DNA of 64,000 bases, from the IMG/VR virus record IMGVR_UViG_3300042945_001831, positions 17,458-81,457 of that record. One strand, given 5' to 3'. The position numbers and the translations under genes are program-made. Of this stretch, positions 3,001 to 58,637 are shown piece by piece. The stretch comes from a virus. The stretch's first letter is position 1; every line of letters starts with the position of its first letter. Under the pieces are notes generated by a model. It was not told the DNA's origin and made no database searches. It saw only the letters and a list, made by a program, of their open reading frames with translations.

Positions 3001-6000
3001 GTCGAATTTCCATTTGATATAGGAGATAAAATTTTTGTTGAAAACGTTTTAATAACTGATTCATCGGATGGTTATAATTCGAGTGATTATGATTATAAGT
3101 ATTTTACAGTTACTGAAATCAATACAATTTCTGGTTCGGAATATGTTAGATATTCAATTTCTGGTCTTGGTAATACTGGTGGATTATTCGATTCAACAAA
3201 AACTTTTGGTAGGGTCATAAAAGTAGATGATTTATGTTCATTTAATGTAGAATTTGAAAAAATTAATTTTCTAGAAGGCGAAAAGATAACTCAAATTAAT
3301 AATAATACAACCGCATATGTTTCCAAAAATGGTTGGGATTCAGAAGCACAAACTTTAAAAGTTATTAATATCGATGGAAAATTTGAGGAAAACAATCAAA
3401 TAAAAGGGTCTATAGGAAATTATAAATCAAGTATTGACTCTACATATTCATTTGATTTTGATTTAAATGTCAATTCAACTGTCAAAAAAGATAAAGATTG
3501 GAATACAGATAAAGGAAAATTAAATTTTGACAATCAAAGAATTCAAGATAGTGATTATTATCAAAGATTTTCATATTCTATAAAAGGAGAAGTTGAATAT
3601 GATGTGTGGAAAGAACCAGTTAACAGTTTAACTCATACCTCTGGATTTAAAAACTTTTCTAATTTAGAAATACTAAATGGAATTGGAAAAACATCTTCTG
3701 TGAAATCAACTGATTCGCAAATTGATTTAAATGTTGAAATATCAAGTTCATCTTCAGTAAATGATAGATTGTACTATGATCTTGCTTCTGAAGATACCAG
3801 CAATCAATCTTTGTCAAATATAATTAAATTTGATTCCAAAATTATTACAGACTACAATGAATCAAGAACAAATAAAGTTTTAGAAATTGATGATATTAGT
3901 TCACAATTTACGGGAATAACAACTACTATTGGTGGTCAAATTGTTGGTCTGACTTCATTTACTTTGTATAATAATGGAAATACACTATTATACAAACAAT
4001 TCAATTCTTCTGGAATAATAACATCTTCGTCATTGATAACAATTCCTGATCATGAATTTAATACTGGCGAAATATTGAAGTATTCTTCAAATGGAGGAAC
4101 ACCAATTGGAATTGTAACGACAACAATAGTTGGTGTTGGGACAACAACTATATTGCCATCTAATGTATATGCTATCAAAATATCCAAAGATACGATTAAA
4201 CTGGCAGTAGGATCAACTCAAGCATCTTCTGGAATAGCAATAACATTTACTTCTTCCGGCATTGGAACACAACACAGTCTTTCAGTTGAATCAAATTTGG
4301 CCTCAAGTAGATGTTTAATTACTATTGATAATATAATTCAAAGTCCATTATCTAAAAAAAATATATCAGTAGGATTGTCTACTCAAGTTGGATTGACCAC
4401 AACAACAATTTATTTGAATGATATTTCAAAGATTCAAGGAAAATCATTATTAAAAATAGAAAATGAAATTATTAAAGTCAATTTAGTTGGTGTCGGATCA
4501 ACCAATTCTCTCAATGTTATTAGAAGTTATATGGGATCTGTTGCATCCGCACATACTGTTGGTGCAGCAGTTACTGTACTGTCTGGTGATTATACTATAA
4601 ATGACGGTAAAATTTATTTTTCTGATGCTCCTTATGGTCCAACAGGAATTGGATCATTAACGTCAAAATCATCTTTTTCTGGAAGAGTATTTTATCGTTT
4701 AAATTATGGTACAAATTACATAATTGATGATATTTCAGAATCCTTTGATAGTATTCAAAACAAATTTAATTTAACAACAAACGGAACAACTTTATCTGGA
4801 ATACAAACCAGTTTTGGAATTGTTTTGGTCAATAATATTTTCCAAAGACCATTTTACGGGGATGTTGGATCTATTTTGGAGTCAGATTACCAAATTGTTG
4901 GTACTGGACAAACAATTAATTTTACTGGATCTGATTATAGAGATTTACCAAGAGGTGGAGTAATTAATGAATTTGATATAACAAACGGGAGTGGATATCA
5001 ATCACCATATAGGGCATCTGCGTATGTAACTGTTTCTGCTGGCGGAACAATTCAATCAATTGGATTATCAACTGGAGGATCTGGTTATACTGCCACACCT
5101 AGAGTTTCTATTGCAGATACACTTGGAGTTGGAATTGGGGCATCAATTATTTCATCAATAACAAATGGAATTGTGACTTCATTTACAATAATAAATCCAG
5201 GAAGTGGATATACATCTTCCAGCCCACCTACAGTTACTATAGATGAACCATATCCATACAAAAATCTATCATTAATTGGTGGTAATGGCAATGGAGCAAA
5301 AATGAATGTAGTAGTTGGTACGGGAGGAAGTATAATTTCATTTGATCTACAGAATCGTGGTTATAGATACAATGTAGGTGATGTGTTAACTCTTTCTGGA
5401 ATACCATTTAGAACTGGAATTGGAACTTCTGCATTTAAAGTTACAGTAAAGAATAGATATCAAAGTAAATTCTCTGGTTGGACTTTTGGTCAATTATTAG
5501 AACTTGATGATTTTAGCAATTTATTCAATGGATTTAGAAAGTCATTTTTATTAACAAGAACTATAGTCACTAAAGAATATTATAGTATAAATGCACAAAA
5601 AGATTCTGGAATTATTTTGAAAAATAATTTACTTATTTTCTTAAATGATGTATTACAAAAACCAGAAATAGATTACATTTTTAACGGTGGAACTAGACTT
5701 ACATTCCAAGAAGCACCAAAATCTGGAAGTAAATTAAAAATTTATTTTTATGTTGGGTCAACTGAAGATTATTTAATTATTAATGTAAATCAGTCAATAA
5801 AACCAGGAGATAGATTGAGATTACAAAAACAAAATAACGTTCCATCTCAAGACGAAAGAATCATTTATGAATTAATTGCATCAGATAGCGTAGAAACACA
5901 AACTTATGGTGGCATAGGAATAGTCACATCTTCCACATTCTTGAGACCAGTAGTTTGGTCAAAACAGTCTTCCGATATTATTATTGATGGAATTAAAATA

Positions 6001-6702
6001 TCAAAACAGAGAGATTATTTAGAACCACAAATATATCCAAGCACAAATATTATTGCATCAGTTGCATCGACTGATTCTAAAATTTATGTCAAAAATACGT
6101 ATCCATTGTTTAATAATTTAGATGATTTGTCACAAACTTTAAATGATATTAAAATAGTTGGTTTGGGAACTACTGCAGTGACAGAAAAAATAAAAAAAGT
6201 CACATATTCCGGAGATTGTGGAATTATTGTTGGAATTGCCACAAGTGCTACTGGAATAAGCACATCATCTCCTATGATTATTTTTGATATAATTCCAGAT
6301 CCAAATATTCCTGGAAATGTAGTTAAACCAGGAATTTCAACAGGTGATTATTTTGTTATTGAAAATACAATAATTGGATCTGGAGTCACTTCAATAAAGG
6401 ATAATTCATCTTCGATTGTTTCTGTTGGAAATAGCTTTATTGATAATGTTTATTATGCAAGTAATATTACTTCAATTGGATCAAGTTCCCTTCGTGTATA
6501 TTCAAACGTAAAATCTATTTCTGGAATAAACACATCATTATTACCCAAACTTAATTCTTACGGAACCTATACTTGGGGAACAATCAATATATCTAGAAAT
6601 TCAAATTCTAAATCATTTGAATTTTACAATCAAAATGGAATTGCTGGAATTGAAACATCAGCACATGTTTCTAGATTATTGCAATTAAGATTAACTTATT
6701 AA
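1..6702 (+). CDS. gp7: Large baseplate wedge initiator (cyanophage gp7-like), 5'-truncated; YHYH-type domain near the visible N-end
   Basis: Frame is open from base 1, so the TTG at 118 is not the true start. Contains HSPIIGWAYDGNPIYGPYG and GDLDEYNGRF motifs plus QDSDYYQRFSYSIK. Lies directly upstream of gp8. Confidence 0.75.
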   Translation, partial: TLQIPSEARFKQKKIGSYYATKEIRKILNDNLDQNTFEELDELNSHSPIIGWAYDGNPIYGPYGNSKSIADSSGTGGLKRIVSGYTLDPINDNSLRPSYPSGYFIEDYNFDDSGDLDEYNGRFIVNSDFPNGSYAYFSTLDVDKNPEFPYITFKHHNATDLFNYDVLKTQSDSYLNTGEYKRNITPQGISEKYKKYPFFDDNFNSNVDLQVILTKKSGISTISVKDGGTNYKVGDKVIFSNDSNINYNVKEVLGKNIISIASSEIINENLVFSFLDKKVTAFSTVPHNFVNGDIVEISGISSALYKNIEGLKTIEVSAVVSSLSVSIGDTSTTGITTFISISDPTSNGNFIPNSIIQIDSEQLLILNLDNYNNRYRVQRAYNNTVGSAHTATSIVRLLPKSFTFNNNSQIQSNIQTNYSYYFNPNTSIGIGNSYTNVIVATSGSNNIVKSIPPKSIYLPDHKFNTGDLISYTSIGSTIIASKNSSLTPTFTLNDFQNLYCVKISDEYIGISTEKVGFTTSYVYFVSYTGSNHKFESIKNQVTGNCKKVNVTVTVEDSIDLMKGDNINLNILPKSNQYFNFKFNDAIKKLVVNPVSFASTAVGVGTADSTITINNHNYKTGDVVVYTAENPITPFVNNGIYYVIKISNSSFKLASNSYNATKLDYEYIGISSYGSGTHNLSLINPKLTFYKGNNVSIAVSDTSLSGYDIKFYYDNEFKSEYNSTLIRKYGVIGNSNPSSIINFFIDDSIEKQFFYRIEGKDIKFTDTYPSSANTDVQNYSLIEVKQSIYNGSHVVSGVGTTSFNFTLVGTAETTLYNQTGISTAYYFTNSQNAKGKIFSIKKIDSKLNLERIPQISSIRSIEGSDGILSVESNDIGNIKDIKVINQGLEFSNNKTLTPKADVYTILKLKDVYKLKTIGISTGGKNYTSPPNVIAIGNSSILTRTSIQGSSVSKIEIISNDSGLSNDIRILPINNSNGVGIINATSNFKINTLYLKAPLLGFVEFPFDIGDKIFVENVLITDSSDGYNSSDYDYKYFTVTEINTISGSEYVRYSISGLGNTGGLFDSTKTFGRVIKVDDLCSFNVEFEKINFLEGEKITQINNNTTAYVSKNGWDSEAQTLKVINIDGKFEENNQIKGSIGNYKSSIDSTYSFDFDLNVNSTVKKDKDWNTDKGKLNFDNQRIQDSDYYQRFSYSIKGEVEYDVWKEPVNSLTHTSGFKNFSNLEILNGIGKTSSVKSTDSQIDLNVEISSSSSVNDRLYYDLASEDTSNQSLSNIIKFDSKIITDYNESRTNKVLEIDDISSQFTGITTTIGGQIVGLTSFTLYNNGNTLLYKQFNSSGIITSSSLITIPDHEFNTGEILKYSSNGGTPIGIVTTTIVGVGTTTILPSNVYAIKISKDTIKLAVGSTQASSGIAITFTSSGIGTQHSLSVESNLASSRCLITIDNIIQSPLSKKNISVGLSTQVGLTTTTIYLNDISKIQGKSLLKIENEIIKVNLVGVGSTNSLNVIRSYMGSVASAHTVGAAVTVLSGDYTINDGKIYFSDAPYGPTGIGSLTSKSSFSGRVFYRLNYGTNYIIDDISESFDSIQNKFNLTTNGTTLSGIQTSFGIVLVNNIFQRPFYGDVGSILESDYQIVGTGQTINFTGSDYRDLPRGGVINEFDITNGSGYQSPYRASAYVTVSAGGTIQSIGLSTGGSGYTATPRVSIADTLGVGIGASIISSITNGIVTSFTIINPGSGYTSSSPPTVTIDEPYPYKNLSLIGGNGNGAKMNVVVGTGGSIISFDLQNRGYRYNVGDVLTLSGIPFRTGIGTSAFKVTVKNRYQSKFSGWTFGQLLELDDFSNLFNGFRKSFLLTRTIVTKEYYSINAQKDSGIILKNNLLIFLNDVLQKPEIDYIFNGGTRLTFQEAPKSGSKLKIYFYVGSTEDYLIINVNQSIKPGDRLRLQKQNNVPSQDERIIYELIASDSVETQTYGGIGIVTSSTFLRPVVWSKQSSDIIIDGIKISKQRDYLEPQIYPSTNIIASVASTDSKIYVKNTYPLFNNLDDLSQTLNDIKIVGLGTTAVTEKIKKVTYSGDCGIIVGIATSATGISTSSPMIIFDIIPDPNIPGNVVKPGISTGDYFVIENTIIGSGVTSIKDNSSSIVSVGNSFIDNVYYASNITSIGSSSLRVYSNVKSISGINTSLLPKLNSYGTYTWGTINISRNSNSKSFEFYNQNGIAGIETSAHVSRLLQLRLTY

Positions 6703-8299: not shown

Positions 8300-11200
8300 A
8301 TGGCACAAAACACTAATTTAAATATCTCTCCATATTTTGATGATTTTGATGAGAATAAAAACTACAAGAAAGTTTTATTCAAACCTGGATTTCCAATTCA
8401 ATCCAGAGAATTAAACACTCTACAATCAATTCTTCAAAATCAAACTGAAAAATTTGGTCAATATTTTTTTAAAGAGGGATCAGTTGTTATTCCAGGGGCA
8501 ACTTTTTATGATGATAGATATTTTGCCGTCAGAATAGATCCATATTTTTTAAATATACCAGTAAAAGAATATACAAGTATATTATCGTCCGAAGAAATTG
8601 AAATAAAAGGAGAAACTTCTGGTGTAACCGCAACTGTTGTTAATAGAATTACAGATACAGAATCCATAGATGGATTTGATACTCTTTATGTAAAATATAA
8701 ATCCTCGGGAACAGATCCAAATGTAAAAACTTTTATTGATGGTGAGAATTTAATTACGCTTTCGGATATTAATTATTCTTTAACTAAAATTTCAACAAAT
8801 AGTTCATTTGCAAAGTGTATAAATTCAAATGCAACTAAAATTGGATCTTCCGCTTCAATTAATGATGGAGTTTATTTTATAAGAGGATATTTTGTAAAAG
8901 TTCAAAAAGAAACAATAATTTTAGATCAATATAGCAATGCTCCTAGTTATAGGATTGGTTTATTAATTAATGAACAAATTATCTCAGCATCAAGTGAAAA
9001 TCAAGATCTTTTTGACAATGCTCAAGGATTTCCAAATGAATCAGCACCTGGAGCTGATAGATTTAAAATCAGTGCAAGTTTACACAAAAAAGAATTAACT
9101 GATTTAAATGATCAAAATTTTGTAGAATTAATTCGTGTAAATCAAGGAATATTGCAAAAATTTGTCAATAAAACAGAATTAAATATTTTCAAAGAAGAAT
9201 TAGCAAGAAGAACATTTGAAGAGTCTGGAGATTATTACGTTTCCCCATTTGCTATTGACGTTAGAGAATCTTTAAATGACAGAATCTCCAATAGAGGTGT
9301 ATATTATGAAAATCAATTAACGCAAAACGGAAATACTCCATCTGATGATATTTTTGTTTTGCAAGTTTCTCCAGGAAAAGCATATGTTAGAGGATATGAT
9401 ATTGATAAATTATCTACATCATCCATAGATTTAGTAAAACCAAGAACCACGAAATCAAAACAGAATGTAAGTTTACCAATAAAAATTGGAAATTTAGTCA
9501 GAACAAATAACGTGTATGGTTCTCCAAAAATTGGATTTTCAACAACATATACAATAAATTTGTTAAATCAAAGATTGGATAGCAATCGCACAATTGGATC
9601 AGCGACAACTATTGGCATCGCTAGAGTTTATGATTTCAATCAAAGATTTGTTTCTGGTATTTCGACCACTGAATACGATTTAAGACTTTTTGATATTCAA
9701 ACATATACTTCAGTTACAATTGGACTTGGTATCACTGCATCAGCAGATTCGCACATTAAAGGTCAATATAGTGGTGCAACTGGATTTTTGAAAAATTCAA
9801 TTGCAAATGAAACATCTTTAACCATATATGATACTAAAGGAAATTTTTCAATTAATGAACCAATTATAGTTAATGGAATTAATGTAGGTAGAAATTTAAC
9901 ATCAATAGTAGATTATAACTTTACTGATGTTAAATCAGTATATGGAGCAGTTGGAGTATCGACTTTTGCTTCTGATTTGGTTTTGGGACAAAAAGCAAAA
10001 GTTTTTACAGAAACAAGTCAATTTACAATTACTCCGGGAACGACAGGGATTAGTACAGTAACAAGCCCAAGTGTTTCGGATTTTAGGTCATTAGTAAAAA
10101 TTGGAGATATTGTACAATATTCTAGACCAGGATTTAGTACAATTACATACAATAGAGTATCAAATGTTTCTGCAACTAAGTTAACAGTTGTTGGTGTATC
10201 TACAGTCATTGGAGTGTGTGAAGGTAATCTTCCTTCTTCTGGGTCGGATTTGACTGTTACTGATTTTGATGTTGTAATTCCATCATTAGAGGATGCATCC
10301 AATCCTGGATATACAATTGATATACAAAATAGATATGTTTCTTCAATTAATTTATTAGATTCTACGTATATTGCAAGAAAACAAATTTTAAAAAATATTA
10401 CAGCATCTACATATACTTTTTATTTGAGTGATCTTGGAGATAATAATATTTATTTTGAACCATTCAAAGAAGATAATTATATTTTAACTTGGGAAACAGG
10501 ACAAAAGGAAGTTTTAACTAGCGCACAAGTATCGTTTAGTTCAAATTTAAGAGAATTGACTATTTCTGGTCTTTCTAGAACTGGAAACGCAACTTTATCT
10601 TGCACAGTAAAGAGAACAACACTTTCATCTAAAGAAAAAACATTAGTTAGATGCAATGAATTAATAATTAATAGATCAAAATATAGTGGATCTGGAATTG
10701 GATCAACTACTTTTAATGATGGCCTTACTTATAATTCAGTATATGGAACTAGAGTACAGGATGATGAAATTTCATTAAATTATCCAGACATTTATAGAAT
10801 TTTAGGTGTTTTTGAATCAAATGATAGTAATAATCCAACTTTACCAGCATTGACAGTCTCATCTCAATCTGACAGTTTTGTAAATAATGTAAAGATAGGA
10901 GAACAACTTATTGGAAATTCTTCTGGGGCACTTGCTCGTGTCGTGTATGTTGATGGATCAAATCAAATAAGGTTTGTATATGAAAATGAAAAAACTTTTG
11001 AAATTGAAGAAATAATAACATTTAAAACTTCTTCTATTGTTGCAACTATTAGTATTTTAATAGTTGGTGATAGAAATATTATTAGAAATTATCAATTTGA
11101 TGATGGGTATAGATTAGAATATGCAGATTATGGAAGAATTATAAGAAACTCTGGAATTGCAGAACCAACTAAAAAATTAAGTATTATTTTTGATTATTAT

Positions 11201-14200
11201 CAAAATAATGAATCATCTGGAACAGTTGAATCTGTAAATAGTTATAATTCATTAAATTATTCTAAAGAAATACCATCAGTATTGGGTGTACGAGCATCCG
11301 ACTATATTGATTTTAGACCAAAAGTTTTACCATATTCTACAACTAGTACACTATCGCCATTTTCATTCTCAAGTAGAAATTTTTCAGGATCTTCTTCTGA
11401 AACAATTGTTTCTAATGAAACAATTGTTGTAGATTATTCGTATTATCTTGGAAGACTGGATAGATTATATCTAACTAAAGATGGATTATTTGAAATAAAA
11501 AAAGGAGAACCATCAGAAAATCCAAAACTTCCTATTCCAAATAATGAAGGATTTGAAGTTGCAACAATTTCAATGAATCCTTATATGATTAATGCTACTA
11601 ATGATTGTTCAATAAAAACTATACCTCATAAGAGGTATACGATGAATGATATTGGGAATCTTGAGACAAGAATCAAAACATTAGAAGATTATACAACTCT
11701 TTCTTTACTTGAAACTGATACAAAAAATCTATCAATAAAAGATCCAAACACTGGACTTGATAAATTTAAATCAGGATTTTTTGTAGATACTTTTAGAAAT
11801 CACGAATCTCATAATTTGACTGGTGATTCTAAATTTGATATTGATATAGAAAATGGAGAATGCAGACCAAGATCAACAGAAAGAAATGTCTCTTTAATTT
11901 TTGAAACAAAATCGTCTTTAGCAAATCCAACAAATTCTGACTATCGTTGGATTGAAGATTTCGAATCTAACAATATTACAAGAAATGGTGTAGGTTTAAC
12001 TTTAAAATATACTGAAGTTCCATTTATTGTACAAGATCTTGCAAGTAGAACAGAAAATATAAATCCTTTCCATATAGCATTATATGCTGGAGCAATTGAA
12101 CTTACTCCAATATCTGATTTCTGGATTGAAGAAGTTATGCTGGAAACTCCAGATGTAATAAAAATTGATTCCGCTTTTGGTGCTGTTGCAGAATTGCTCG
12201 GAGTAGAGGATAGAGAAAACGGTGGAATGTCTGCAAGTTATTGGAATTCTCACGAAACAACTTGGACTGGAAAAGAATTAATTAAAGAAGAATTAGTTAG
12301 TAGTGATGTGATTAGTTCTTCTAGTGTTGTTGATGCACAACGTAGAAATCAAGTTCCACTTAGAAGAGACGTAACTACTACTACTAATGTACTTTCTAAT
12401 GATTATTTACAAACAATACAGCAAACAGGAATAAACAAAACTTTTGGTTTGCAACTAACTGCAGGTGAAGAAAAAATAAGTCTTGGAAATAGAGTTATTG
12501 GAGTTGATGTTTTATATAATTGTCGTTCTAGAAACATTGAAGTAGTTGGAAATAAATTAAAACCAAATACAAGATATTATGTCTTTTTTGAGAATACAGA
12601 TGTAACAGAATATTGCACTCCAAAACTTTTACCAATTACGATGAGAAGAGGGACATTTGCAACTTCTGATATTGTAAGAACTTCAATATCATCACAATCA
12701 GTTGGAAATCCTCAAATCAAATTTAGAGTTGCACAACTAAATCACAAATTTGGTGATTTTAAATCACCAACTGTAACTTACAGTACGGATCCATATACAT
12801 CATCTCCTTTGGGATCATCATATTCCAGCACTAGCACGATTGTAAATCTTGATACTGGAGATTTGGCACTTCTTGTGGATCCATCACGTTCTGGATGGGT
12901 TAGAAAAGGTTCTGTGATAGCAAATGAATCTGGAACTGCTGAAGCAGTTGTTAATGAATTGAGTTTAAGGAGCGATGAAAAAGGAACTCTTATTTTCTCG
13001 TTGTTTATTCCAGATCCAAAAATTCCAAGCAATCCCAAATTTACCACTGGACAGAATACAATTAGAATTACTACAAGTCCAACAAATGCAAACAATTTAG
13101 ACCCAGGTGAAAGTTCTGCACAAACTACTTACTTTGCTACTGGTTATGCACAAAATACTCAAGAACAAACACTTTCAATCAAAACTCCAGAAATTGAAAG
13201 AAAACAAATTGGTTCCGATCAACCAATTACACAAATAACACAAAGTCTTGATGAAAACAGAATTGAAACTAGAACAAATGTTTCTGATACTGGTTGGTAT
13301 GACCCTCTTGCTCAATCTTTCTTAATTGAAAGAGACAAGTATCAAGATGGAGTATTTGTTACTGGTGGAGAAGTTTACTTTAAAACAAAAGATGAAGTTT
13401 CTCCAGTTACAATCCAAATTAGAACTATGAGAGATGGTTCTCCAACTGGAGTAATCGTTCCATTTGGAGAAACTCAAGTAGATCCAAAAGATATTCCACT
13501 TTCCACAGATGGAAGTGCTCCAACTATATTTAAATTTTCAACTCCGGTATATTTGCAATCTGGATATGAATATGCACTTGTTTTAGTATCATCTACTAGC
13601 AAATACTTAACGTTTACATCTAGAGTTGGTGAGGAAGATTTAATTCTTGGGTCAATAAGCAATAAGCAACCATATATGGGTTCATTGTTTAAATCACAAA
13701 ACGGATCAACTTGGGATCCAAGTCAATTTGAAGATTTGAAATTCAAGCTCTTTAAGGCAAAGTTTGTAACAAACACTCCATCTAGTTTCATATTTTACAA
13801 TTCTGATCTTCCAAAAGGTAAGATTTTAAAAGAAAATCCAGCAACTTCATATTCTAAGAGACAATATGTTTCAATTGCAAATACAACTATTTCATTTGCT
13901 CAAGGAAATAGTTTAACACAAACTTCATCTTATGGTAATATTTTTGATTATGGTGGTCCAGTCGGATTAGGAACAAGTTCTTTAGTTGTATCTTCTTCTG
14001 GAATTGGATTAACTAATGGAACTTTTACTGGAATTGGATTTAGTGCATTGACTGGGTATGGAAGTTCTTGTGTTGCAACAGTCACTGTATCTAATGGTGC
14101 TATAAGTAATTTAAATGTAACAAGTGGTGGAAATGGATATAGATCTGGTGATTTGATTTTGGTAAATCAATTAGGAAACACTGGAACTGGCGTAAGAGCA

Positions 14201-15589
14201 ACAGTTGGAATTGTTTCTACTACAAACTTGTTGGTTATTGATGATGTAAATGGATCATTCAATACATTAGATTCTTTGACATATTACAATTCAACTGGTT
14301 CATCATTTGGACTTGCTGCTCCAACTTCTATCAATGATGATCCAATCAGAGATGGATATACATTATTGTTTGATCACAAAAATCACGGAATGCATTCAAG
14401 TTCAAATAAATTAGAAGTAATTAATTTCAATAGTGATTTGTCACCAACAATTCTTTCTTCATCTATTTTGGATACATCAACAACAATAACTGTAAGCAAT
14501 CCTGGAATATTAACTTCATTTGAAGGATCTGCCATAGGTGTTGCTAATACTGGATATTTGCTAATTGATAATGAAATAATTTCTTATAATTCTATTTCTG
14601 GAAATAATATTACAATTACTGAAAGGGGAATTGATAATAGTTTAAAAACAACTCATGCTATAAATTCATTGGTATATACTTATCAATTTAACTCTATTTC
14701 ATTAAGAAAAATCAATAAAACACACAATATTGATTCAAGAGAAAAAACATTTGATAGTTACTATTTAAAATTATCAGATACATCAAAATCATTTAAAACA
14801 ACCAAATCTGGCGGTGGAAAAAATCTTGAAGTTTCTCAAAATGTTCCATTTGAAGTTATTTCTCCAAGAATTAATTCAATAACACCTTCAGGAACAAATA
14901 TTACAGCAAGAATTAAAACAATTTCAGGAACAAGTATTAGTGGAAATGAATCATCATTTGCAGATCAAGGATATGAGAATGTTTCTTTAAATAAATTGAA
15001 TTATCTTAATAGTCCAAGAATTGTGGCATCGAAAGTAAATGAGTATAATTTACTTTCAAATGAAAAGTCATTTGCACTTGAAATGACTTTATCTACAACT
15101 AAAGAAGATGTATCGCCATTTATTGATTTGAATACTGCAAATATTATCGCAATTAGCAACTTGGTTGATGATAAAGTTGAAAACTTTGAGACTGATAATA
15201 GATGTAAAATTCCAGGAAGTGATCCAAATTCTGGAATATATGAAACTAAAAAAATATCTTTGGAGTTCCCAGCAAACTCACTTTATGTTCAATTTGATGG
15301 ACATAAATTTGCTGGAGCAGATATTCGAGTTATGTATAAACTTTATAGAAATGATAATTCAGATTTTCAACAAATTTATACTCCATTTAATACTGATGGA
15401 TCACCAGACAAAACAGTAAATTCAAATAACAATTTAAATCAATTTAGTGAATATAAATTTACTGCAGAAAATCTACCACAATTTAATGGATTTATGATTA
15501 AGGTTATTATGACCTCTAATGATCAATCAAAACCACCTAGAATTAAAAACTTTAGGTCAATTGCTCTTCGTTCATATGCAGCAGAATGA
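8300..15589 (+). CDS. Large VrlC-like virion structural protein (2429 aa)
   Basis: N-terminal NLNISPYFDDFD...KVLFKPGFPIQSRELNTLQSILQNQ, APGADRFKI and DPLAQSF motifs. Usual position after gp8 in cyanomyoviruses. Confidence 0.8.
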   Translation: MAQNTNLNISPYFDDFDENKNYKKVLFKPGFPIQSRELNTLQSILQNQTEKFGQYFFKEGSVVIPGATFYDDRYFAVRIDPYFLNIPVKEYTSILSSEEIEIKGETSGVTATVVNRITDTESIDGFDTLYVKYKSSGTDPNVKTFIDGENLITLSDINYSLTKISTNSSFAKCINSNATKIGSSASINDGVYFIRGYFVKVQKETIILDQYSNAPSYRIGLLINEQIISASSENQDLFDNAQGFPNESAPGADRFKISASLHKKELTDLNDQNFVELIRVNQGILQKFVNKTELNIFKEELARRTFEESGDYYVSPFAIDVRESLNDRISNRGVYYENQLTQNGNTPSDDIFVLQVSPGKAYVRGYDIDKLSTSSIDLVKPRTTKSKQNVSLPIKIGNLVRTNNVYGSPKIGFSTTYTINLLNQRLDSNRTIGSATTIGIARVYDFNQRFVSGISTTEYDLRLFDIQTYTSVTIGLGITASADSHIKGQYSGATGFLKNSIANETSLTIYDTKGNFSINEPIIVNGINVGRNLTSIVDYNFTDVKSVYGAVGVSTFASDLVLGQKAKVFTETSQFTITPGTTGISTVTSPSVSDFRSLVKIGDIVQYSRPGFSTITYNRVSNVSATKLTVVGVSTVIGVCEGNLPSSGSDLTVTDFDVVIPSLEDASNPGYTIDIQNRYVSSINLLDSTYIARKQILKNITASTYTFYLSDLGDNNIYFEPFKEDNYILTWETGQKEVLTSAQVSFSSNLRELTISGLSRTGNATLSCTVKRTTLSSKEKTLVRCNELIINRSKYSGSGIGSTTFNDGLTYNSVYGTRVQDDEISLNYPDIYRILGVFESNDSNNPTLPALTVSSQSDSFVNNVKIGEQLIGNSSGALARVVYVDGSNQIRFVYENEKTFEIEEIITFKTSSIVATISILIVGDRNIIRNYQFDDGYRLEYADYGRIIRNSGIAEPTKKLSIIFDYYQNNESSGTVESVNSYNSLNYSKEIPSVLGVRASDYIDFRPKVLPYSTTSTLSPFSFSSRNFSGSSSETIVSNETIVVDYSYYLGRLDRLYLTKDGLFEIKKGEPSENPKLPIPNNEGFEVATISMNPYMINATNDCSIKTIPHKRYTMNDIGNLETRIKTLEDYTTLSLLETDTKNLSIKDPNTGLDKFKSGFFVDTFRNHESHNLTGDSKFDIDIENGECRPRSTERNVSLIFETKSSLANPTNSDYRWIEDFESNNITRNGVGLTLKYTEVPFIVQDLASRTENINPFHIALYAGAIELTPISDFWIEEVMLETPDVIKIDSAFGAVAELLGVEDRENGGMSASYWNSHETTWTGKELIKEELVSSDVISSSSVVDAQRRNQVPLRRDVTTTTNVLSNDYLQTIQQTGINKTFGLQLTAGEEKISLGNRVIGVDVLYNCRSRNIEVVGNKLKPNTRYYVFFENTDVTEYCTPKLLPITMRRGTFATSDIVRTSISSQSVGNPQIKFRVAQLNHKFGDFKSPTVTYSTDPYTSSPLGSSYSSTSTIVNLDTGDLALLVDPSRSGWVRKGSVIANESGTAEAVVNELSLRSDEKGTLIFSLFIPDPKIPSNPKFTTGQNTIRITTSPTNANNLDPGESSAQTTYFATGYAQNTQEQTLSIKTPEIERKQIGSDQPITQITQSLDENRIETRTNVSDTGWYDPLAQSFLIERDKYQDGVFVTGGEVYFKTKDEVSPVTIQIRTMRDGSPTGVIVPFGETQVDPKDIPLSTDGSAPTIFKFSTPVYLQSGYEYALVLVSSTSKYLTFTSRVGEEDLILGSISNKQPYMGSLFKSQNGSTWDPSQFEDLKFKLFKAKFVTNTPSSFIFYNSDLPKGKILKENPATSYSKRQYVSIANTTISFAQGNSLTQTSSYGNIFDYGGPVGLGTSSLVVSSSGIGLTNGTFTGIGFSALTGYGSSCVATVTVSNGAISNLNVTSGGNGYRSGDLILVNQLGNTGTGVRATVGIVSTTNLLVIDDVNGSFNTLDSLTYYNSTGSSFGLAAPTSINDDPIRDGYTLLFDHKNHGMHSSSNKLEVINFNSDLSPTILSSSILDTSTTITVSNPGILTSFEGSAIGVANTGYLLIDNEIISYNSISGNNITITERGIDNSLKTTHAINSLVYTYQFNSISLRKINKTHNIDSREKTFDSYYLKLSDTSKSFKTTKSGGGKNLEVSQNVPFEVISPRINSITPSGTNITARIKTISGTSISGNESSFADQGYENVSLNKLNYLNSPRIVASKVNEYNLLSNEKSFALEMTLSTTKEDVSPFIDLNTANIIAISNLVDDKVENFETDNRCKIPGSDPNSGIYETKKISLEFPANSLYVQFDGHKFAGADIRVMYKLYRNDNSDFQQIYTPFNTDGSPDKTVNSNNNLNQFSEYKFTAENLPQFNGFMIKVIMTSNDQSKPPRIKNFRSIALRSYAAE

Positions 15590-52847: not shown

Positions 52848-54038
52848 ATGAAAAGTTTTTCCCAATTTATTAAAGAAGCAGTAGAAACACTTGCATCTAC
52901 TGAAGCAAAGAATCGTGGTCTTAAGGGAGATGGTCACGGAGATTGGTATGATAAACAGGGCAATCTTGTAGCAAAAACTGTAGGTGGAAAGTTAAAATAT
53001 TTTGGTCAAGGTGGTGCTGGAACTCAACAACAACAAGCACCACCACAACAACAAGCAGCATCACAACAGCAGAAGGCAGCACCACAACAAGCAACGCAGC
53101 AACAAGAAGCAGAACCAGAACAAACTAATGGTGTTGCAATTGTAATTGGAAGATTTAATCCTCCATCTAAAAATCACGGAGCATTATTAAAAGCAGGATT
53201 TTCTCAAGCAAAAAGAAGAGGATTTGAGTATCGTATCTATCCAAGTCGGATTCAGGACGATAATACAAATCCATTAAATCCAAAATTAAAGATTTCTTAT
53301 ATGAAATCAATGTTTCCAGATTATGCTGATTATATTGTAGATAGTCAAGATTCAAAAACTATTTTTGATGTATTGGGATCTTTGTATGAAGATGGATATA
53401 CTGATGTCGTGATCGTTGCTGGACAGGATAGACTTGGTGAATTTCAAAGTCTTGTTCATAAGGGTGATGGGCAATCGTATCAATTCAATAATATTGAAGT
53501 TGTTACATCTGGAGTAAAAGATCCTGATAGTGAAGTAGAAACTGCTGGCTCCTCTGCTTTGATGAGAGCTGCTGCAGCAATTGAAGATTTTTCTAGATTT
53601 TCTACTGGACTTCCACCAACAATGAAAAAGGGAGAACAAAAAGAATTGTTTAATACTATTCGTAGATCTATGAATGTCCAAGAAGATACTGAAATATGGA
53701 GAATTGCACCAGAATTGGATTATGAAGGATTGAGGTGGAATTATAAGAATAAAGGTCTTTATGAAGTTGGTAATTTAATTGAAAATTTAAATAGTGGATT
53801 GATTGGTGAAGTAATTCGTCGTGGAACAAATTATTTGATTTGTGTTACCGAAGATGGGATAATGTTTAAAAATTGGTTGAAAGATGTTCGTGAAGTATAT
53901 GAAATTGGAACTGATGAATATAGAGCACATTTTCAAAAAGGAACTCCAGGACAAGACGTTGAATCATATACCAATGTGAGAATTAAACCTACAGTGCCAA
54001 AAAAATCTATAAATATCAATAGAAAAAGAAGTATCTAG
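52848..54038 (+). CDS. Cytidylyltransferase-like nucleotidyltransferase with N-terminal extension and Gln-rich linker
   Basis: GRFNPP...H, NPL...K..YM..MFP and VAGQDR motifs. N-terminus MKSFSQFIKE. Confidence 0.82.
   Translation: MKSFSQFIKEAVETLASTEAKNRGLKGDGHGDWYDKQGNLVAKTVGGKLKYFGQGGAGTQQQQAPPQQQAASQQQKAAPQQATQQQEAEPEQTNGVAIVIGRFNPPSKNHGALLKAGFSQAKRRGFEYRIYPSRIQDDNTNPLNPKLKISYMKSMFPDYADYIVDSQDSKTIFDVLGSLYEDGYTDVVIVAGQDRLGEFQSLVHKGDGQSYQFNNIEVVTSGVKDPDSEVETAGSSALMRAAAAIEDFSRFSTGLPPTMKKGEQKELFNTIRRSMNVQEDTEIWRIAPELDYEGLRWNYKNKGLYEVGNLIENLNSGLIGEVIRRGTNYLICVTEDGIMFKNWLKDVREVYEIGTDEYRAHFQKGTPGQDVESYTNVRIKPTVPKKSININRKRSI
54008..54015 (+). promoter_or_regulatory. Late promoter TATAAATA
   Basis: Exact consensus about 30 nt upstream of the next ATG. 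Confidence 0.7.
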
Positions 54039-54043
54039 GTAAA

Positions 54044-55321
54044 ATGAGAACTTGGAAGGAAATTATAAAAGAAGCAACTGCTGCTGAAACACGTAAGGCA
54101 GGTGAAGCAGCTTTGAAAGAGATACAAGCAGAAAACAAAAAAGATAAAAATATAAAAAAGAAATCGGAATATACGGAATATTTGCAAAAGCAACTTGAAT
54201 TTAAAAAACAAAAATATGAAGATCAAAAGAAAGCACAGGTTGAAAGAATAAGACGAAAAGGAGTTCAACAGAATGTAGATAAAGCAAAGGCATCTATTTC
54301 TGGAATTAAAACTCAACAAATTAGTGATAAGGAGGGGGATGCTACTGCATACTCAAAAGCCATTGGGAATGTAGGTTCTGCTACTGCTGGTGTTGCAGGT
54401 GCTGCATATCACGGAGCACGAGCATTGTTGGCAAAAAGAGCAGCAGCAAAAAAAGCAGCAGAAGCAAAGGAAAAGCAAATAGAAAAAAAGCAACCAAAAG
54501 CAGGAGGCAGGCCACCTACTCCTAAACCAGCAACTCCTGGAGCAGGTTTGCCAAAACCTGCTGCGCCAAGATTAGGAGGAGCACCACAACCAAAATTACT
54601 TACTCCACAAACAAAAAAATTAGCTCCAGCAACAAAGAGACTTCCTCCTTCTGGTGGTGCTCCTGAAAGTTCTAGAGGTCCAAAACCAACATCGTTAGGT
54701 CAGAGAGCAAGACAAAATCCAGAACTTAAAAAGAGAATGATTGCTCAACGTAATGAGGAATATTCTAATTGGAGAGAAGAATTTCTTTATGAAATTGATA
54801 TTGAAAAACCAAATACCAAAGGAAAAAAGAAAGATATTGTTGATGTGATGCCAAAAAATGCAACAAATAAAATTGATCTCAATCCAAATGAAGGACAAGT
54901 AAAAGAATCAATTGAGAAGGAACCAATTGAAAAAGAAAATCCTGGAATGGATGTAAAAAAAAATCAACAACTGAAGCAGCAACTTATGCTTCAAAGAAAA
55001 ATTCAAATGGCTAAATTGACACAATTGAATAAAGGAATTCCACTTGAATCTTATGAATTTGAAGGAAATATAATTGATGAAGAAGGTCCTGTATTGTCTG
55101 TTGGAAGAGGAGAAAAACTTCCAGTAAGTAAAGGTGCTGGACTTACTGCTAAAGGTAGAGAAAAATACAATCGTGCAACTGGTTCAAATCTTCAAGCACC
55201 AGTAACTGGTGATGTAAAACCAGGAAGTAAAGCAGCACAACGCCGTAAGAATTTTTGCTCTCGTAGTAGAAGTTGGAAAGGCGAAAGAGGTTTAGCAGCA
55301 AGAAGACGTTGGAAGTGTTGA
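54044..55321 (+). CDS. Basic, low-complexity modular protein, candidate internal head protein
   Basis: MRTWKEIIKE start, K/A/P-rich centre, EEYSNWREE, and C-terminal GLTAKGR...RRKNFCSR...RRWKC module. Confidence 0.7.
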   Translation: MRTWKEIIKEATAAETRKAGEAALKEIQAENKKDKNIKKKSEYTEYLQKQLEFKKQKYEDQKKAQVERIRRKGVQQNVDKAKASISGIKTQQISDKEGDATAYSKAIGNVGSATAGVAGAAYHGARALLAKRAAAKKAAEAKEKQIEKKQPKAGGRPPTPKPATPGAGLPKPAAPRLGGAPQPKLLTPQTKKLAPATKRLPPSGGAPESSRGPKPTSLGQRARQNPELKKRMIAQRNEEYSNWREEFLYEIDIEKPNTKGKKKDIVDVMPKNATNKIDLNPNEGQVKESIEKEPIEKENPGMDVKKNQQLKQQLMLQRKIQMAKLTQLNKGIPLESYEFEGNIIDEEGPVLSVGRGEKLPVSKGAGLTAKGREKYNRATGSNLQAPVTGDVKPGSKAAQRRKNFCSRSRSWKGERGLAARRRWKC

Positions 55322-55322
55322 T

Positions 55323-56204
55323 GTGTCTGAAGAATTATCTGATTTTTTTAATCTACTAGCAGAAAATAAAAAAAAGAAAAAAGAAGAATTTGACTCTGTG
55401 GTCGGTGACTTGGGGTTAGATTCTGTTTTTGAAGAATTTGTCAACTTAAAAAAAGAAACTAAAAAGAAAAAAGTACAGGAACAAAAAACTGTTAGAGCAT
55501 TTGAAAAATGGTTATATACTGAGACACCTATAGAACAAGAACAAATTATTGAAAGTGCAATTGAAGAATCTTTTGATAAAGTTCTTGAGGTTTTTGGCGA
55601 TAATGAAGAAAATCTGATTGAAAAATCACTTGGATTACTTTCTGAACCATCAGATGTTAAACAAAAAAATGATCAATTAACTCCTCTGAACCAAAAGTTT
55701 GCAACACTTGATGATTTGCAAAAGCATTACAGCACTTTCCTTTCTCGTATTCAACAACAACTCTCCACAATAGGTGGAGGAGGAGAAACTCGTTTGAGAT
55801 ACTTAGATGATATTGTAGGTATTGCAACGAATTCTGGTGCTTATAATAATAAATTTTTACAATGGAATTCTACAACGAATAAAGCAGAGTTTGTTGATCC
55901 AAATGATGTTGGTGGCACAACAATTGTAAATATCTCTGGTATTACCACTTACTATCAGGCATCAAATGTTGACGATTATATTGGTGTAAATGCAAATGTT
56001 CCTGTAACAATAGTCCTTCCAATATCTCCAAATACTGGAAAAAAACTTATCGTAAAAGACGAAGGTAATAAGATTGCTACATACAATATAACAGTTCAGG
56101 CAGGTGCTGGAACAAGTGTAGAGAATGATAGTTCAGTTATTATGACTATCAATCATCAATCACTAACATATTTTTTTAATGGAAACAATTGGTTTATTGT
56201 CTAA
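55323..56204 (+). CDS. Hypothetical protein: charged coiled-coil N-half, GGGGE motif, fibre-like C-terminal domain
   Basis: RIQQQLSTIGGGGETRLRYLDD and DDYIGVN...TIVLP...GKKLIVKDE. Confidence 0.7.
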   Translation: MSEELSDFFNLLAENKKKKKEEFDSVVGDLGLDSVFEEFVNLKKETKKKKVQEQKTVRAFEKWLYTETPIEQEQIIESAIEESFDKVLEVFGDNEENLIEKSLGLLSEPSDVKQKNDQLTPLNQKFATLDDLQKHYSTFLSRIQQQLSTIGGGGETRLRYLDDIVGIATNSGAYNNKFLQWNSTTNKAEFVDPNDVGGTTIVNISGITTYYQASNVDDYIGVNANVPVTIVLPISPNTGKKLIVKDEGNKIATYNITVQAGAGTSVENDSSVIMTINHQSLTYFFNGNNWFIV

Positions 56205-56216
56205 CTAAATATCAAT

Positions 56217-56272
56217 ACCTGTGTGGTTCGCATCTATCAGGTGGAAAAGGTGCTTTCGGGCACCTTTTCTTG
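56217..56272 (+). ncRNA. Candidate small RNA (hairpin plus UUCG terminator) complementary to the downstream endonuclease leader
   Basis: CTAAATA at 56205-56211, ACCTG/CAGGT stem, then GAAAAGGTGC-TTTCGG-GCACCTTTTC. TGGTTCGCA (56224-56232) is the reverse complement of TGCGAACCA (56285-56293). Confidence 0.45.
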
Positions 56273-56280
56273 TATAAATA
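56273..56280 (+). promoter_or_regulatory. Late promoter TATAAATA for the endonuclease
   Basis: Exact consensus immediately after the terminator hairpin. Confidence 0.8.
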
Positions 56281-56306
56281 TTATTGCGAACCATAACAGA
56301 GTAGAA

Positions 56307-56873
56307 ATGATTTATTACACTTACGCATATTTGCGGGTAGATAGAACACCTTATTACATAGGAAAAGGAAAAGGTAATAGGGCATATAGAAGAAGATATA
56401 AAGGTGAAATAAAATCATCAAAAGATAAATCAAGAATAATCTTCCTCAAACAAAATCTAACTGAAGAAGAAGCATTTAGACACGAAAAGTATATGATTTC
56501 TGTCTTTGGTAGAAAAGATTTAGGAACTGGTATTCTTCATAATAGAACTGATGGTGGTGAAGGGTGTTCTGGAGCAAAAAGAAGTGAAGAAACAAAATTA
56601 AAAATGAGAACTCCTAAAAAAACAACAATAAATATGAAAAAACCAAAAAGTGAGGAGCATAAGAAAAAAATAGGATTGCATAGAAAAGGAAAAAAACACA
56701 CGGAAGAAGCAAGAAAAAAAATGAGTGATGCTCAGGTTAGGAGAATTATCACTGATGAATTTAGAGAAAAAATTCAAAAAAGTAGAATGGGAAGAAAACA
56801 TTCCGAAGAAACAAAACAAAAAATGAGAGAAAAAGCATTATTAAGAGAAGAACTAAAACGGAACAATAAATAA
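56307..56873 (+). mobile_element. Free-standing GIY-YIG-like homing endonuclease with NUMOD3-type repeats
   Basis: True start at 56307. YYTYAYL...PYYIGKG...R, E..AF..E and NRTDGGEG; repeats RSEETK, KSEEHK, HTEEAR and HSEETK. Confidence 0.85.
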
Positions 56874-56891
56874 GGTATCAGTATAATTGTT

Positions 56892-58637
56892 ATGTCTTAT
56901 AATCCTCTTCCACAACCAGCACAATCCGTAGTTCTTACAGGTGCTGGAACATCATTAGTTACTTATGCTAACCCATTTCCAGTATCTCTTGGAAGTTCAA
57001 GTATTACAATTAATGGAAGCATTACAATTCCAACAACTGTAAGTGTTGCAAGTTCTGCTGCAAATCCAGTTCATACTCATATTACTCAAATTGGTTCAAG
57101 TGGTCTTTTAGAAGACGAAGGTATTCCATATATGCCTATTGGTATTGGAACTGCACAAAATCTAAATCTTTCATATCTTCCAGTTGGCATTTCCACATTA
57201 CTGAATACTGTAAGTATAGGAAATACAGTATCAATCTCCAACACTTCTTTTTATGTTCTAAATCCAGTCACAACAGTCGCAGTATCAGGTATTGGTTCTA
57301 CTGTTACAGTTCAAGGAACAGTAGGAATTGGAACAACGGGGCAAGTATCAATCAACCTCAATAGTGCTCCTGTAAGTTCTACTAATCCCCTACCAGTTAC
57401 GGGAACACTGGGAATTTCTACAACAGCAGTAGTATCAACTACTCTACCATCAACTTCAAGTGATGCATTTGGTCGTTTAAGAATATCTCAACCTCTTACC
57501 TTATTTGATAGTTCTCACAGATATAGAGACAATAATCTTTGGGAAAGTTTAGTTGTAGGAACTGGTTCAACCGTTGGATTTGTAACCGCACAAGGTTTGA
57601 TTAATATTGGTATTGGAACTACTGCTGGTTGTTCTGTAATTAGAGAAACAACAAAAGTATTTTCATATCAACCAGGAAAATCTTTATTGATTTTGAATAC
57701 CTTTGTAATGAATGCACCAAAAACAAATCTAAGACAAAGAGTTGGATATTTTGGTGCTGATAATGGAATGTATCTGGAACTTGATGGGAATACTTTATAT
57801 TTTGTAGAAAGAAGTTTATCTACCGCAACCACAACCAGAGTCGCACAATCAAGTTGGAATATTGATAGGTTAGATGGAACTGGTGCTTCTGGTATCACAT
57901 TAGACACCACAAAAGCACAAATTCTTTGGATGGATATTGAGTGGTTGGGACTTGGAACCGTAAGAATGGGATTTGTAATCAACGGACAATTTATTCACTG
58001 CCATTCATTCCATCACGCAAATGTAATTGAATCAACTTATATCACAACAGCATCATTACCTTTGAGATATGAAATTGCTAATACAGGAATTACAACCAGT
58101 GCAAGCACACTTAAACAAGTTTGTTCTACTGTAATTTCAGAGGGTGGTTATGAACTTCGTGGATTGCAACAAGCAATTAGCATTCCAATTAATTCTCCAA
58201 GAACATTGGGAACTGCGGGAACATTTTATCCTGTAATATCTTTGCGTCTCAAAGCATCACCAAATCGTTTGGATGCGATTGTAATTCTCACAGCACTTTC
58301 TATAATGCCAATTAGCACTGGTAATTTTAATTGGCAAGTTAGAGCATCTGAAACTACTACTGGTGGTTCTTGGGTAAGTGCTGGAGATGATAGTGCTGTT
58401 GAATATAATATTACTGGAACTTCTGCTGCTGGGGGAAGAATACTAGCAAGTGGATTTTTTAACGCATCAAATCAAGCAGCAAGTCAAGTTGATATTCTGA
58501 AAGAAGCATTATTTAAGTTTCAGTTAGAAAGAAATGGATTAACTTCAACTCCTTATGAACTTACACTTGTGGTTGCTTCTGATGGTGGTAGTGATACTGT
58601 TGTTGCTTCTATGGACTGGGAAGAGATTAGTAGGTAA
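56892..58637 (+). CDS. Virion structural / fibre-like protein
   Basis: Ser/Thr/Val-rich N-half with NPxPV repeats; globular domain starting DAFGRLRISQPLTLFDS and containing YQPGKS and EWLGLG. Confidence 0.65.
   Translation: MSYNPLPQPAQSVVLTGAGTSLVTYANPFPVSLGSSSITINGSITIPTTVSVASSAANPVHTHITQIGSSGLLEDEGIPYMPIGIGTAQNLNLSYLPVGISTLLNTVSIGNTVSISNTSFYVLNPVTTVAVSGIGSTVTVQGTVGIGTTGQVSINLNSAPVSSTNPLPVTGTLGISTTAVVSTTLPSTSSDAFGRLRISQPLTLFDSSHRYRDNNLWESLVVGTGSTVGFVTAQGLINIGIGTTAGCSVIRETTKVFSYQPGKSLLILNTFVMNAPKTNLRQRVGYFGADNGMYLELDGNTLYFVERSLSTATTTRVAQSSWNIDRLDGTGASGITLDTTKAQILWMDIEWLGLGTVRMGFVINGQFIHCHSFHHANVIESTYITTASLPLRYEIANTGITTSASTLKQVCSTVISEGGYELRGLQQAISIPINSPRTLGTAGTFYPVISLRLKASPNRLDAIVILTALSIMPISTGNFNWQVRASETTTGGSWVSAGDDSAVEYNITGTSAAGGRILASGFFNASNQAASQVDILKEALFKFQLERNGLTSTPYELTLVVASDGGSDTVVASMDWEEISR

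Follow-up and report, generated by a model that had tools for sequence, protein, structure and literature searches.

Covarying RNA helices mark a candidate control module of mobile homing endonuclease genes in freshwater cyanophages

What is the role of two late-promoter motifs, an intrinsic terminator and a pair of complementary arms packed together immediately upstream of a homing endonuclease gene (HEG)? The question is raised by positions 56205-56891 of the window, by which we mean the whole 64,000-nt stretch of viral DNA analyzed here (positions 17,458 to 81,457 of IMG/VR record IMGVR_UViG_3300042945_001831, an 81-kb uncultured virus with an estimated completeness of 43%). A first-pass annotation of this sequence had listed a CTAAATA motif (here P1), a hairpin (hairpin 1), a UUCG terminator, the motif TATAAATA (P2), a leader and an ATG at 56307, all of which we located at the positions it gave, and had proposed that a small RNA or a switch in cis represses the nuclease. 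Comparison of the natural copies of this arrangement leads us to regard it, with good though not complete confidence, as the 5' control module of a mobile, free-standing HEG cassette of freshwater T4-like cyanophages, in which read-through RNA is silenced in cis and transcripts starting at P2 escape.

Comparison with related loci indicates that the segment, which holds both the HEG and its control module, is inserted between two structural genes. Relatives of the upstream open reading frame (ORF) are encoded at 39 loci, six of which end before the junction; in all 33 informative loci the flanking structural genes abut, with the upstream stop followed after 0-1 nt by the downstream ATG (TAA-T-ATG or an overlapping TAATG), and the 687 bp are therefore an insertion. 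Only the window and the near-identical loci L017 and L025 carry it. The CTAAATA of P1 forms the extreme 5' edge of the insert and is thus part of the cassette, and among the module copies compared the sequence 5' of the first promoter motif is unrelated from one context to another. The last codons of the upstream gene (56190-56204) read TGGTTTATTGTCTAA in the carrier as opposed to mostly TGGTTCTTAATCTAA in the 33 nuclease-free relatives (L078-L116), with several substitutions less than 10 nt from the insertion point, a pattern that an altered copy of the nuclease target site in the carrier would produce.

Copies of the module and covariation of its helices

Folding of the window sequence revealed a long-range structure in addition to the annotated hairpin. 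For positions 56200-56320, RNAfold gave -39.4 kcal/mol (z = -5.6, with none of 200 shuffles as good), and the minimum free energy (MFE) fold is not hairpin 1 but a helix of 17 pairs (56216-56232/56285-56303) that encloses the terminator and joins an upstream arm, the anti-leader, to the leader of the nuclease mRNA. Within the anti-leader, the stretch CTGTGTGGTTCGCA pairs with the leader, bearing out the complementarity of hairpin arm and loop to the leader that had been noted previously, and 8 of the 10 nt from -13 to -4 relative to the ATG are paired. The arm/leader duplex, at -23.3 kcal/mol, was matched by none of 2000 shuffled leaders (-10.1 +/- 2.8 kcal/mol). Nevertheless, 23 other sites among 9139 sampled 29-nt segments pair about equally well by energy, and the window holds 116 pairs of inverted repeats of at least 12 nt within 120 nt. 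By the repeat and duplex scans the window's own repeat is thus unexceptional, and only comparison across copies establishes the module; the chance test from the window alone is modest evidence, and the comparative evidence, drawn from sequence, is decisive. The terminator was not flagged by a simple terminator scan, and an Rfam cmscan of 56000-56500 returned no match at gathering score, its two rows being at chance level (28.2 bits against a threshold of 54 and 14.7 against 298).

The exact pattern of the terminator-P2 core occurred at 61 viral-contig loci, which yielded 63 complete copies, 45 of them unique, and four more that are cut by locus ends. A covariance model built on the long-range fold (R1) gave 103 matches from 69 sources, 78 of them distinct, among them about 35 divergent copies whose terminators have different stems and GAAA loops; overall there are 103-105 copies (78-80 distinct). 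The carriers are uncultured freshwater cyanophage contigs and Synechococcus phage S-SRM01, with six copies in S-SRM01, six in locus L019 and one in the window's own 81-kb record. S-SRM01 was the one isolate genome in which blastn detected the module, with several hits to the upstream region. A search of Syn9, S-PM2, P-SSM2, P-HM2 and S-CRM01 with R1 gave only two weak rows, in Syn9 (E = 0.04) and S-CRM01 (E = 0.2), which by eye are intergenic regions with a terminator and a late promoter that lack complementary arms. The Syn9 region (NC_008296 119409-119499; L131 1501-1591) consists of CATAAATAA over the gp134 stop codon, a terminator with a UUCG loop, and CCTAAATA before gp135.

The sequences of the arms are highly diverse, and their pairing is kept. 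The anti-leaders comprise 36 distinct 12-nt cores, which group into 18 clusters. Arm/leader pairs nevertheless number 12 or more in 74 of 76 distinct full-length copies. In an alignment fitted to the R1 structure (A2), 28 of the 29 model pairs changed on both sides, and 94.7% of cells were paired, a cell count that is favored by fitting the alignment to the structure under test and inflated by the many rows that are close relatives. We therefore place more weight on pair types and arm classes than on cells. The covariation between loop and leader that the first-pass annotation had suggested looking for is present: none of 500 shuffles matched on any measure, sliding the partners by 1-3 columns reduced pairing to 33-49%, and for the long-range helix itself both sides changed in 16 of 17 pairs. 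Cognate anti-leader/leader duplexes average -22.7 kcal/mol, compared with -12.7 kcal/mol for swapped ones. In the MFE fold of the read-through RNA at least 10 long-range pairs form in 44 of the 45 unique copies, and at least 5 of the 10 nt from -13 to -4 are paired to the anti-leader in 39 of 45. Non-Watson-Crick cells of the helix are G-U or U-G in 53 cases as opposed to A-C or C-A in seven, which argues that selection acts on RNA of the sense strand and not on DNA. Pairs adjacent to the loop of hairpin 1 are nearly all Watson-Crick, with G-U pairs and mismatches in the outer helix.

Hairpin 1, the alternative fold of the anti-leader, is also maintained. It is predicted in all 45 unique copies (-4.0 to -8.8 kcal/mol) and is the first of two hairpins in all 76 distinct copies, and its own strands pair at -6.6 kcal/mol compared with -4.4 kcal/mol for swapped strands (0 of 5000 permutations). 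In a second model-fitted alignment (A5), all five of its pairs show compensatory change, with 79.3% of cells paired, a proportion subject to the same bias as in A2. Since the long-range helix and hairpin 1 both covary, the anti-leader covaries with two alternative partners, and the two mutually exclusive folds proposed earlier are both conserved with compensatory changes. For the terminator, 12 of 12 pairs show compensatory change in the divergent copies, where the stem differs and the loop is GAAA. These comparisons show RNA-level covariation of the long-range helix, hairpin 1 and terminator, in a module that is both conserved and modular as judged from its sequences.

The promoter motifs keep fixed positions relative to these structures. 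P1 appears as NNTAAATA in 74 of the 76 distinct full-length copies, its TAAATA being preceded by A in 55 of them and by C in 19. Between the motif and the first pair of hairpin 1 there are 4-5 unpaired nt in 69 of 76 copies (3-6 nt in all 76), in agreement with the earlier observation of a late-promoter motif just ahead of the hairpin. The TAAATA of P2 is invariant in the 45-copy alignment, TATAAATA lies between the arms in all A2 rows when read by eye, and the leader target starts 5-6 nt after P2. In two copies, L070:304-410 and L019:4-108, anti-leader and leader belong to different classes; these copies form just 9-11 arm pairs (-5.4 and -13.3 kcal/mol, respectively), the L019 copy has no P1 motif, and both appear from their sequences to be recombinants across the conserved terminator-P2 core. 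The elements of the cassette in the window are listed in Table 1.

Table 1. Positions of the elements of the cassette and of the adjoining upstream ORF in the window
Element	Position	Strand	Basis or remark
Whole HEG cassette, 687 bp	56205..56891	+	Absent from 33/33 informative relatives
Upstream ORF	55323-56204	+	TAA stop at 56202-56204, CTAAATA directly after
P1, late-promoter-like CTAAATA	56205..56211	+	Sequence; putative promoter
Anti-leader, 5' arm of long-range helix; also 5' strand and loop of hairpin 1	56216..56232	+	MFE fold, covariation
CTGTGTGGTTCGCA, complementary to leader	56219-56232	+	Sequence
Hairpin 1, alternative fold of anti-leader	56217..56242	+	ACCTG (56217-21)/CAGGT (56238-42), inner GTGG/CTAT, loop UUCGCAU
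Putative intrinsic terminator	56243..56271	+	GC-rich stem (hairpin 56243-56270), UUCG loop, U-run to 56271, A-tract pairs with U-run; predicted to terminate
P2, perfect T4-type late promoter motif TATAAATA, between both arms	56273..56280	+	Sequence; predicted activity
Leader TTGCGAACCATAACAG	56284-56299	+	Sequence
Leader as 3' arm of long-range helix, up to position -4 of start codon	56285..56303	+	MFE fold
HEG ORF, 188 aa, ATG 56307	56307..56873	+	GIY-YIG-type N-terminus (YYTYAYLR..TPYYIGKG), NUMOD3 repeats
P3, AATAAATA overlapping HEG stop codon	56865..56872	+	19 nt before ATG (56892) of downstream structural gene; candidate replacement late promoter

Proposed silencing in cis and the alternatives

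The conserved positions of the arms suggest how the module would act. Transcription from upstream genes or from P1 would mostly end at the intrinsic terminator, and any RNA reading through would hold both anti-leader and leader and form the helix of about 17 pairs up to position -4, hiding the ribosome-binding region and leaving the nuclease untranslated. Transcripts from P2 would start between the arms, lack the anti-leader and be translatable late in infection, and P3 at the 3' end of the cassette would restore expression of the downstream gene. This logic would be that of the T-even genes I-TevI, segB and mobE, rebuilt as a long-range helix around a terminator. We infer the activity of the promoters and terminator and the translational block by the helix from this model. 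A cis switch on read-through RNA was one of two mechanisms offered by the first-pass annotation, and it is the better supported, given the helix over -13 to -4 in most unique copies and the precedent in T4 (PMC2988022).

Several points weigh against silencing in cis. An apparently good terminator lies between the arms, so that read-through RNA may be rare, in which case the tight conservation of the arms is hard to explain by cis silencing alone; the model assigns no role to P1 or hairpin 1; and the mismatched arms of L070:304-410 and L019:4-108 seem to be tolerated. The leader has no strong Shine-Dalgarno sequence, and the ribosome-binding site (RBS) is consequently represented here by positions -13 to -4. 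The predicted start about 6 nt after TATAAATA follows the rule for T4. The bias of the fitted alignments discussed above belongs here as well, as do the 24 of 77 downstream proteins (ORF classes B and C, grouped by an N-terminal regular expression) for which no nuclease family was confirmed. Over 55300-57300, the cover given by a lake metatranscriptome run (5% of words shared) was limited to parts of the flanking structural genes and came from diverged relatives; there was none at 56171-57041, which bears neither way on expression.

The features left without a role in cis silencing, namely P1 and hairpin 1, are those that a trans-acting small RNA (sRNA) would use, and such an RNA is compatible with silencing in cis. 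Together with the terminator, P1, acting late, may also yield a predicted RNA of 51-59 nt with two hairpins, which would damp nuclease synthesis or alter decay of the mRNA. The loop of hairpin 1 would nucleate pairing with the P2 mRNA at its very 5' end, and pairing would then spread along the 5' strand over the ribosome-binding region, such that the arm serves as a cassette-specific address. We hold this possibility tentatively, as somewhat less than an even chance. P1 lies within the inserted cassette and keeps NNTAAATA in nearly all distinct copies, hairpin 1 starts at a near-constant distance from it, much as the target does from P2, a fold of two stacked hairpins is predicted for the RNA in all 76, and hairpin 1 covaries even though the cis model does not need it. 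The complementarity is displayed in the loop and 5' strand of hairpin 1 in all 45 unique copies, with nearly pure Watson-Crick pairs beside the loop and G-U pairs and mismatches farther out, and cofolding with the P2 mRNA nets -13.1 kcal/mol on average after opening of hairpin 1 (-5 or lower in 44 of 45). Cassettes with different arms also reside together, six in L019 and four listed for S-SRM01.

However, part of the P1 motif has another reason for conservation, since the stop codon of the upstream gene overlaps it: the TAA lies in or just after P1 in 59 of 99 rows, and a stop falls within -4 to +4 of the motif in 78 of 99. A quarter of P1 sites are CTAAATA, unlike the published cyanophage consensus NATAAATA (PMC2984593), in contrast to P2, which is almost always perfect. 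Because Syn9 has a P1-like motif, terminator and late promoter in the same layout with no complementary arms, the layout alone is no evidence of an sRNA. Covariation does not separate pairing in cis from pairing in trans, and by duplex energy alone the 23 other sites in the window score like the leader. A per-cassette private brake, in which the 18 or more covarying address classes would constitute largely orthogonal sRNA-leader pairs and let several cassettes coexist in one genome, would build on the same features, and we likewise give it somewhat less than an even chance. Cross-talk within genomes, counted when a combination lay no more than 4 kcal/mol from the own pair (5 of 118), was not clearly lower than the 8.4% between genomes. 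The further comparison with a type I toxin-antitoxin pair made in the first-pass annotation holds as an analogy only: type I toxins are small, usually hydrophobic membrane peptides whose mRNA is bound by an antisense antitoxin, whereas the product here is a 188-aa DNA endonuclease, and the cassette is not such a system.

Two other explanations account for less of the data. The helix could mainly serve RNA processing or stability, either through RNase III-type cleavage between the upstream and nuclease mRNAs or by providing protective 3' hairpins to the upstream mRNA. The MFE folds of most copies contain 14-25 helix pairs, which is the size range of substrates for double-strand RNases, and tandem hairpins would stand at the 3' end of every transcript terminating here. 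No result requires cleavage, however, a protective 3' hairpin needs no complementarity to the next leader, and the helix lies precisely over -4 to about -22 of the start codon across classes, which fits occlusion better; we consider a processing element improbable. An element acting as DNA could be a site of recombination or cruciform formation, or else an operator to which the endonuclease binds. The last would recall the autorepression of I-TevI at an operator overlapping its own late promoter (PMC2988022), and the conserved core is evidently a recombination point in the two recombinant copies. A DNA operator or cruciform is nonetheless very unlikely, because the excess of G-U over A-C cells is a strand-specific tolerance of RNA type and because the arms do not track the class of endonuclease; the covariation of the anti-leader with both the hairpin 1 strand and the leader also has no rationale at the level of DNA. 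Silencing of read-through RNA in cis thus remains the reading that we favor.

The nuclease ORFs, the 3' end of the cassette and its neighbors

Module copies always lie 5' of HEG-like ORFs. The HEG of the window, whose start ATG was chosen from the conserved N-termini of its homologs, matches Pfam NUMOD3 (E = 3.1e-9) and PHROG 314, "homing endonuclease" (E = 4.6e-16). Among the 77 distinct downstream proteins, 44 match NUMOD3, six GIY-YIG and two HNH at E values of 1e-3 or better, and others match PHROG families of homing or HNH endonucleases or show weak matches to GIY-YIG, endonuclease VII or PD-(D/E)XK. Arms and nucleases are decoupled, one arm (TACCTGTAAGTCGCAT) standing before four HEG classes and class A being found behind more than 15 arms. 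Members of classes B and C (L019:5185-6054, L064:4311-5087 and 21 relatives in alignment A4) have N-termini such as Y.Y.YYSYEE..GY[FI]GS or IY.YKI.FE.VPYYYYG and helical repeats of the G[IV]HSLT.EER type. They gave no Pfam or PHROG match, and a profile search against PDB sequences returned nothing relevant. An AlphaFold model had a mean predicted local distance difference test score (pLDDT) of 72, with only 44-62 in the N-terminal domain, and with it Foldseek found no match at E <= 0.001, the GIY-YIG domains of I-TevI and UvrC appearing only at E of about 3. Their N-terminal motif is what suggests that classes B and C are nucleases, and together they may constitute a family of GIY-YIG-like endonucleases not described before.

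At the 3' end of the cassette, P3 (AATAAATA) is also present in L017 and L025. We take it as a candidate replacement promoter by analogy with the downstream-gene promoters embedded in T4 HEGs (PMC2988022). A late promoter at the 3' end of every cassette was considered and rejected as a rule, TAAATA occurring near the stop in 10 of 75 distinct tails compared with a background of 6.3%. A TATAAT hexamer lies at 56882-56887, between the nuclease stop and the downstream ATG; with P3 at 56865-72, the downstream structural gene may thus have two replacement promoters. In many tails at other loci (L003, L020, L029, L054, L064, L071, L075 and others; 90 nt after the nuclease stop) we observed a conserved element that begins GGACACTTGA..ACTGGCACA and continues with a GC-rich stem-loop with TTGAAA in the loop, TTT, and an extended -10-like TGGTATGAT or TGTATAAT. 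Judged by sequence, this tail element looks like a terminator/early-promoter composite of the PeSL type described below, which would restart early transcription of the next gene.

Similarity of the neighborhood to Synechococcus T4-like phages, at about 77% identity, is confined to the downstream structural gene. Elsewhere in the window, there are two very long ORFs on the + strand, at 1-6702 (2233 aa, open at the window start) and 8300-15589 (2429 aa). The ORF at 52848-54038 contains a glutamine/proline-rich low-complexity stretch, and that at 54044-55321 is rich in lysine and in alanine/proline in its middle part and matches DUF6321 at its C-terminus (E = 4.9e-13).

Relation to known control elements

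To the phages that carry them, homing endonucleases can be both a benefit and a burden, and to our knowledge silencing of HEGs has been described in just a few T-even cases. The module, of which there are more than 100 natural copies and at least 18 compensatory versions of one helix, amounts to a natural experiment of a kind that is rare for work on RNA structure and function. It shows that the regulatory module, and not the nuclease alone, moves and recombines in freshwater cyanophages, and in annotation it marks HEG insertions and late promoters in uncultured cyanophage contigs. If the RNA from P1 is real, it would represent a new antisense layout, in tandem on the same strand with its own promoter and terminator, and a ready-made library of orthogonal RNA pairs.

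The first-pass annotation knew of no description of this arrangement, which is overstated in view of the control of T4 HEGs (PMC2988022) and the HEG hairpins of Dassa et al. 2009 (PMC2677866). In T4 I-TevI, I-TevII, I-TevIII and segB and in Aeh1 mobE, hairpins sequester the RBS and a late promoter frees the late transcripts; RBS-sequestering hairpins also occur in T4 genes e, soc and others, and T4 HEGs include terminators plus embedded promoters for displaced downstream genes (PMC2988022). The module shares with these a homing endonuclease gene, a helix over the ribosome region and a late promoter TATAAATA predicted here from the sequence to free the mRNA of the inhibitory arm. In contrast to the T-even scheme, about 53 nt separate its arms, with a whole intrinsic terminator lying between them; the anti-leader is preceded by a second late-promoter motif and an alternative hairpin; and the module is a portable unit with at least 100 copies, several HEG classes and at least 18 arm classes.

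Dassa et al. 2009 described hairpins in 15 of 16 HEG 5' untranslated regions from ocean and lake metagenomes, 10 of them with TATAAATA; two conserved motifs, complementary to each other, pair on the stem, and the HEGs concerned are free-standing ones in "fractured genes" from GOS metagenomes (PMC2677866). Those loci, too, are environmental and phage-like and include a freshwater lake, and on the passages compared the hairpins and the present module possibly belong to the same element family. The main text and passages of that paper, its figures lying outside the comparison, mention no terminator, upstream promoter or separate small RNA (PMC2677866).

PeSLs, the composite terminator/early-promoter cassettes of T4-like phages (Arbiol 2010; Comeau 2014; PMC4122927), resemble the module in fusing a short stem-loop terminator to a promoter, in recurring many times in one genome at the edges of variable ORFs and in serving as a recombination point. 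The same trait is apparent here in the six copies each of S-SRM01 and L019 and in the two copies that join arms of different classes. As described in that source, however, PeSLs have an early promoter (sigma-70-type), lack flanking complementary arms and are not tied to HEGs, as opposed to the late TATAAATA and covarying helix found here. Because its promoter is late and PeSLs have no arms, the module is not a strict PeSL.

The RNA predicted from P1 can also be set beside known antisense regulators. The loop of IS10 RNA-OUT pairs with the 5' end of the RNA-IN mRNA and covers its ribosome site, RNA-OUT being transcribed from the opposite strand. The C4 RNA of P1/P7 is encoded upstream on the strand of its target, with covarying specificity alleles, and is processed from an operon transcript. 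Unlike either, the RNA predicted here would lie on the same strand with its own putative promoter and terminator. CfrI of cyanophage S-PM2, an antisense RNA of about 225 nt across an HEG and psbA (PMC2984593), is similarly a cyanomyovirus non-coding RNA linked to an HEG, from which the predicted RNA differs in being same-sense, 51-59 nt long and complementary to the leader only. A full-text literature search returned no account of the P1/hairpin 1 part, nor of how diverse the addresses are; outside its scope were Fig. S4 of PMC2677866 and, in PMC10690425, the tables of candidate RNAs, either of which may list the motif. In sum, the module is real and strongly constrained as RNA, and the part of it that appears to be new, and that the T4 scheme leaves unexplained, is the P1 motif 4-5 nt before hairpin 1, which predicts a two-hairpin RNA of 51-59 nt.

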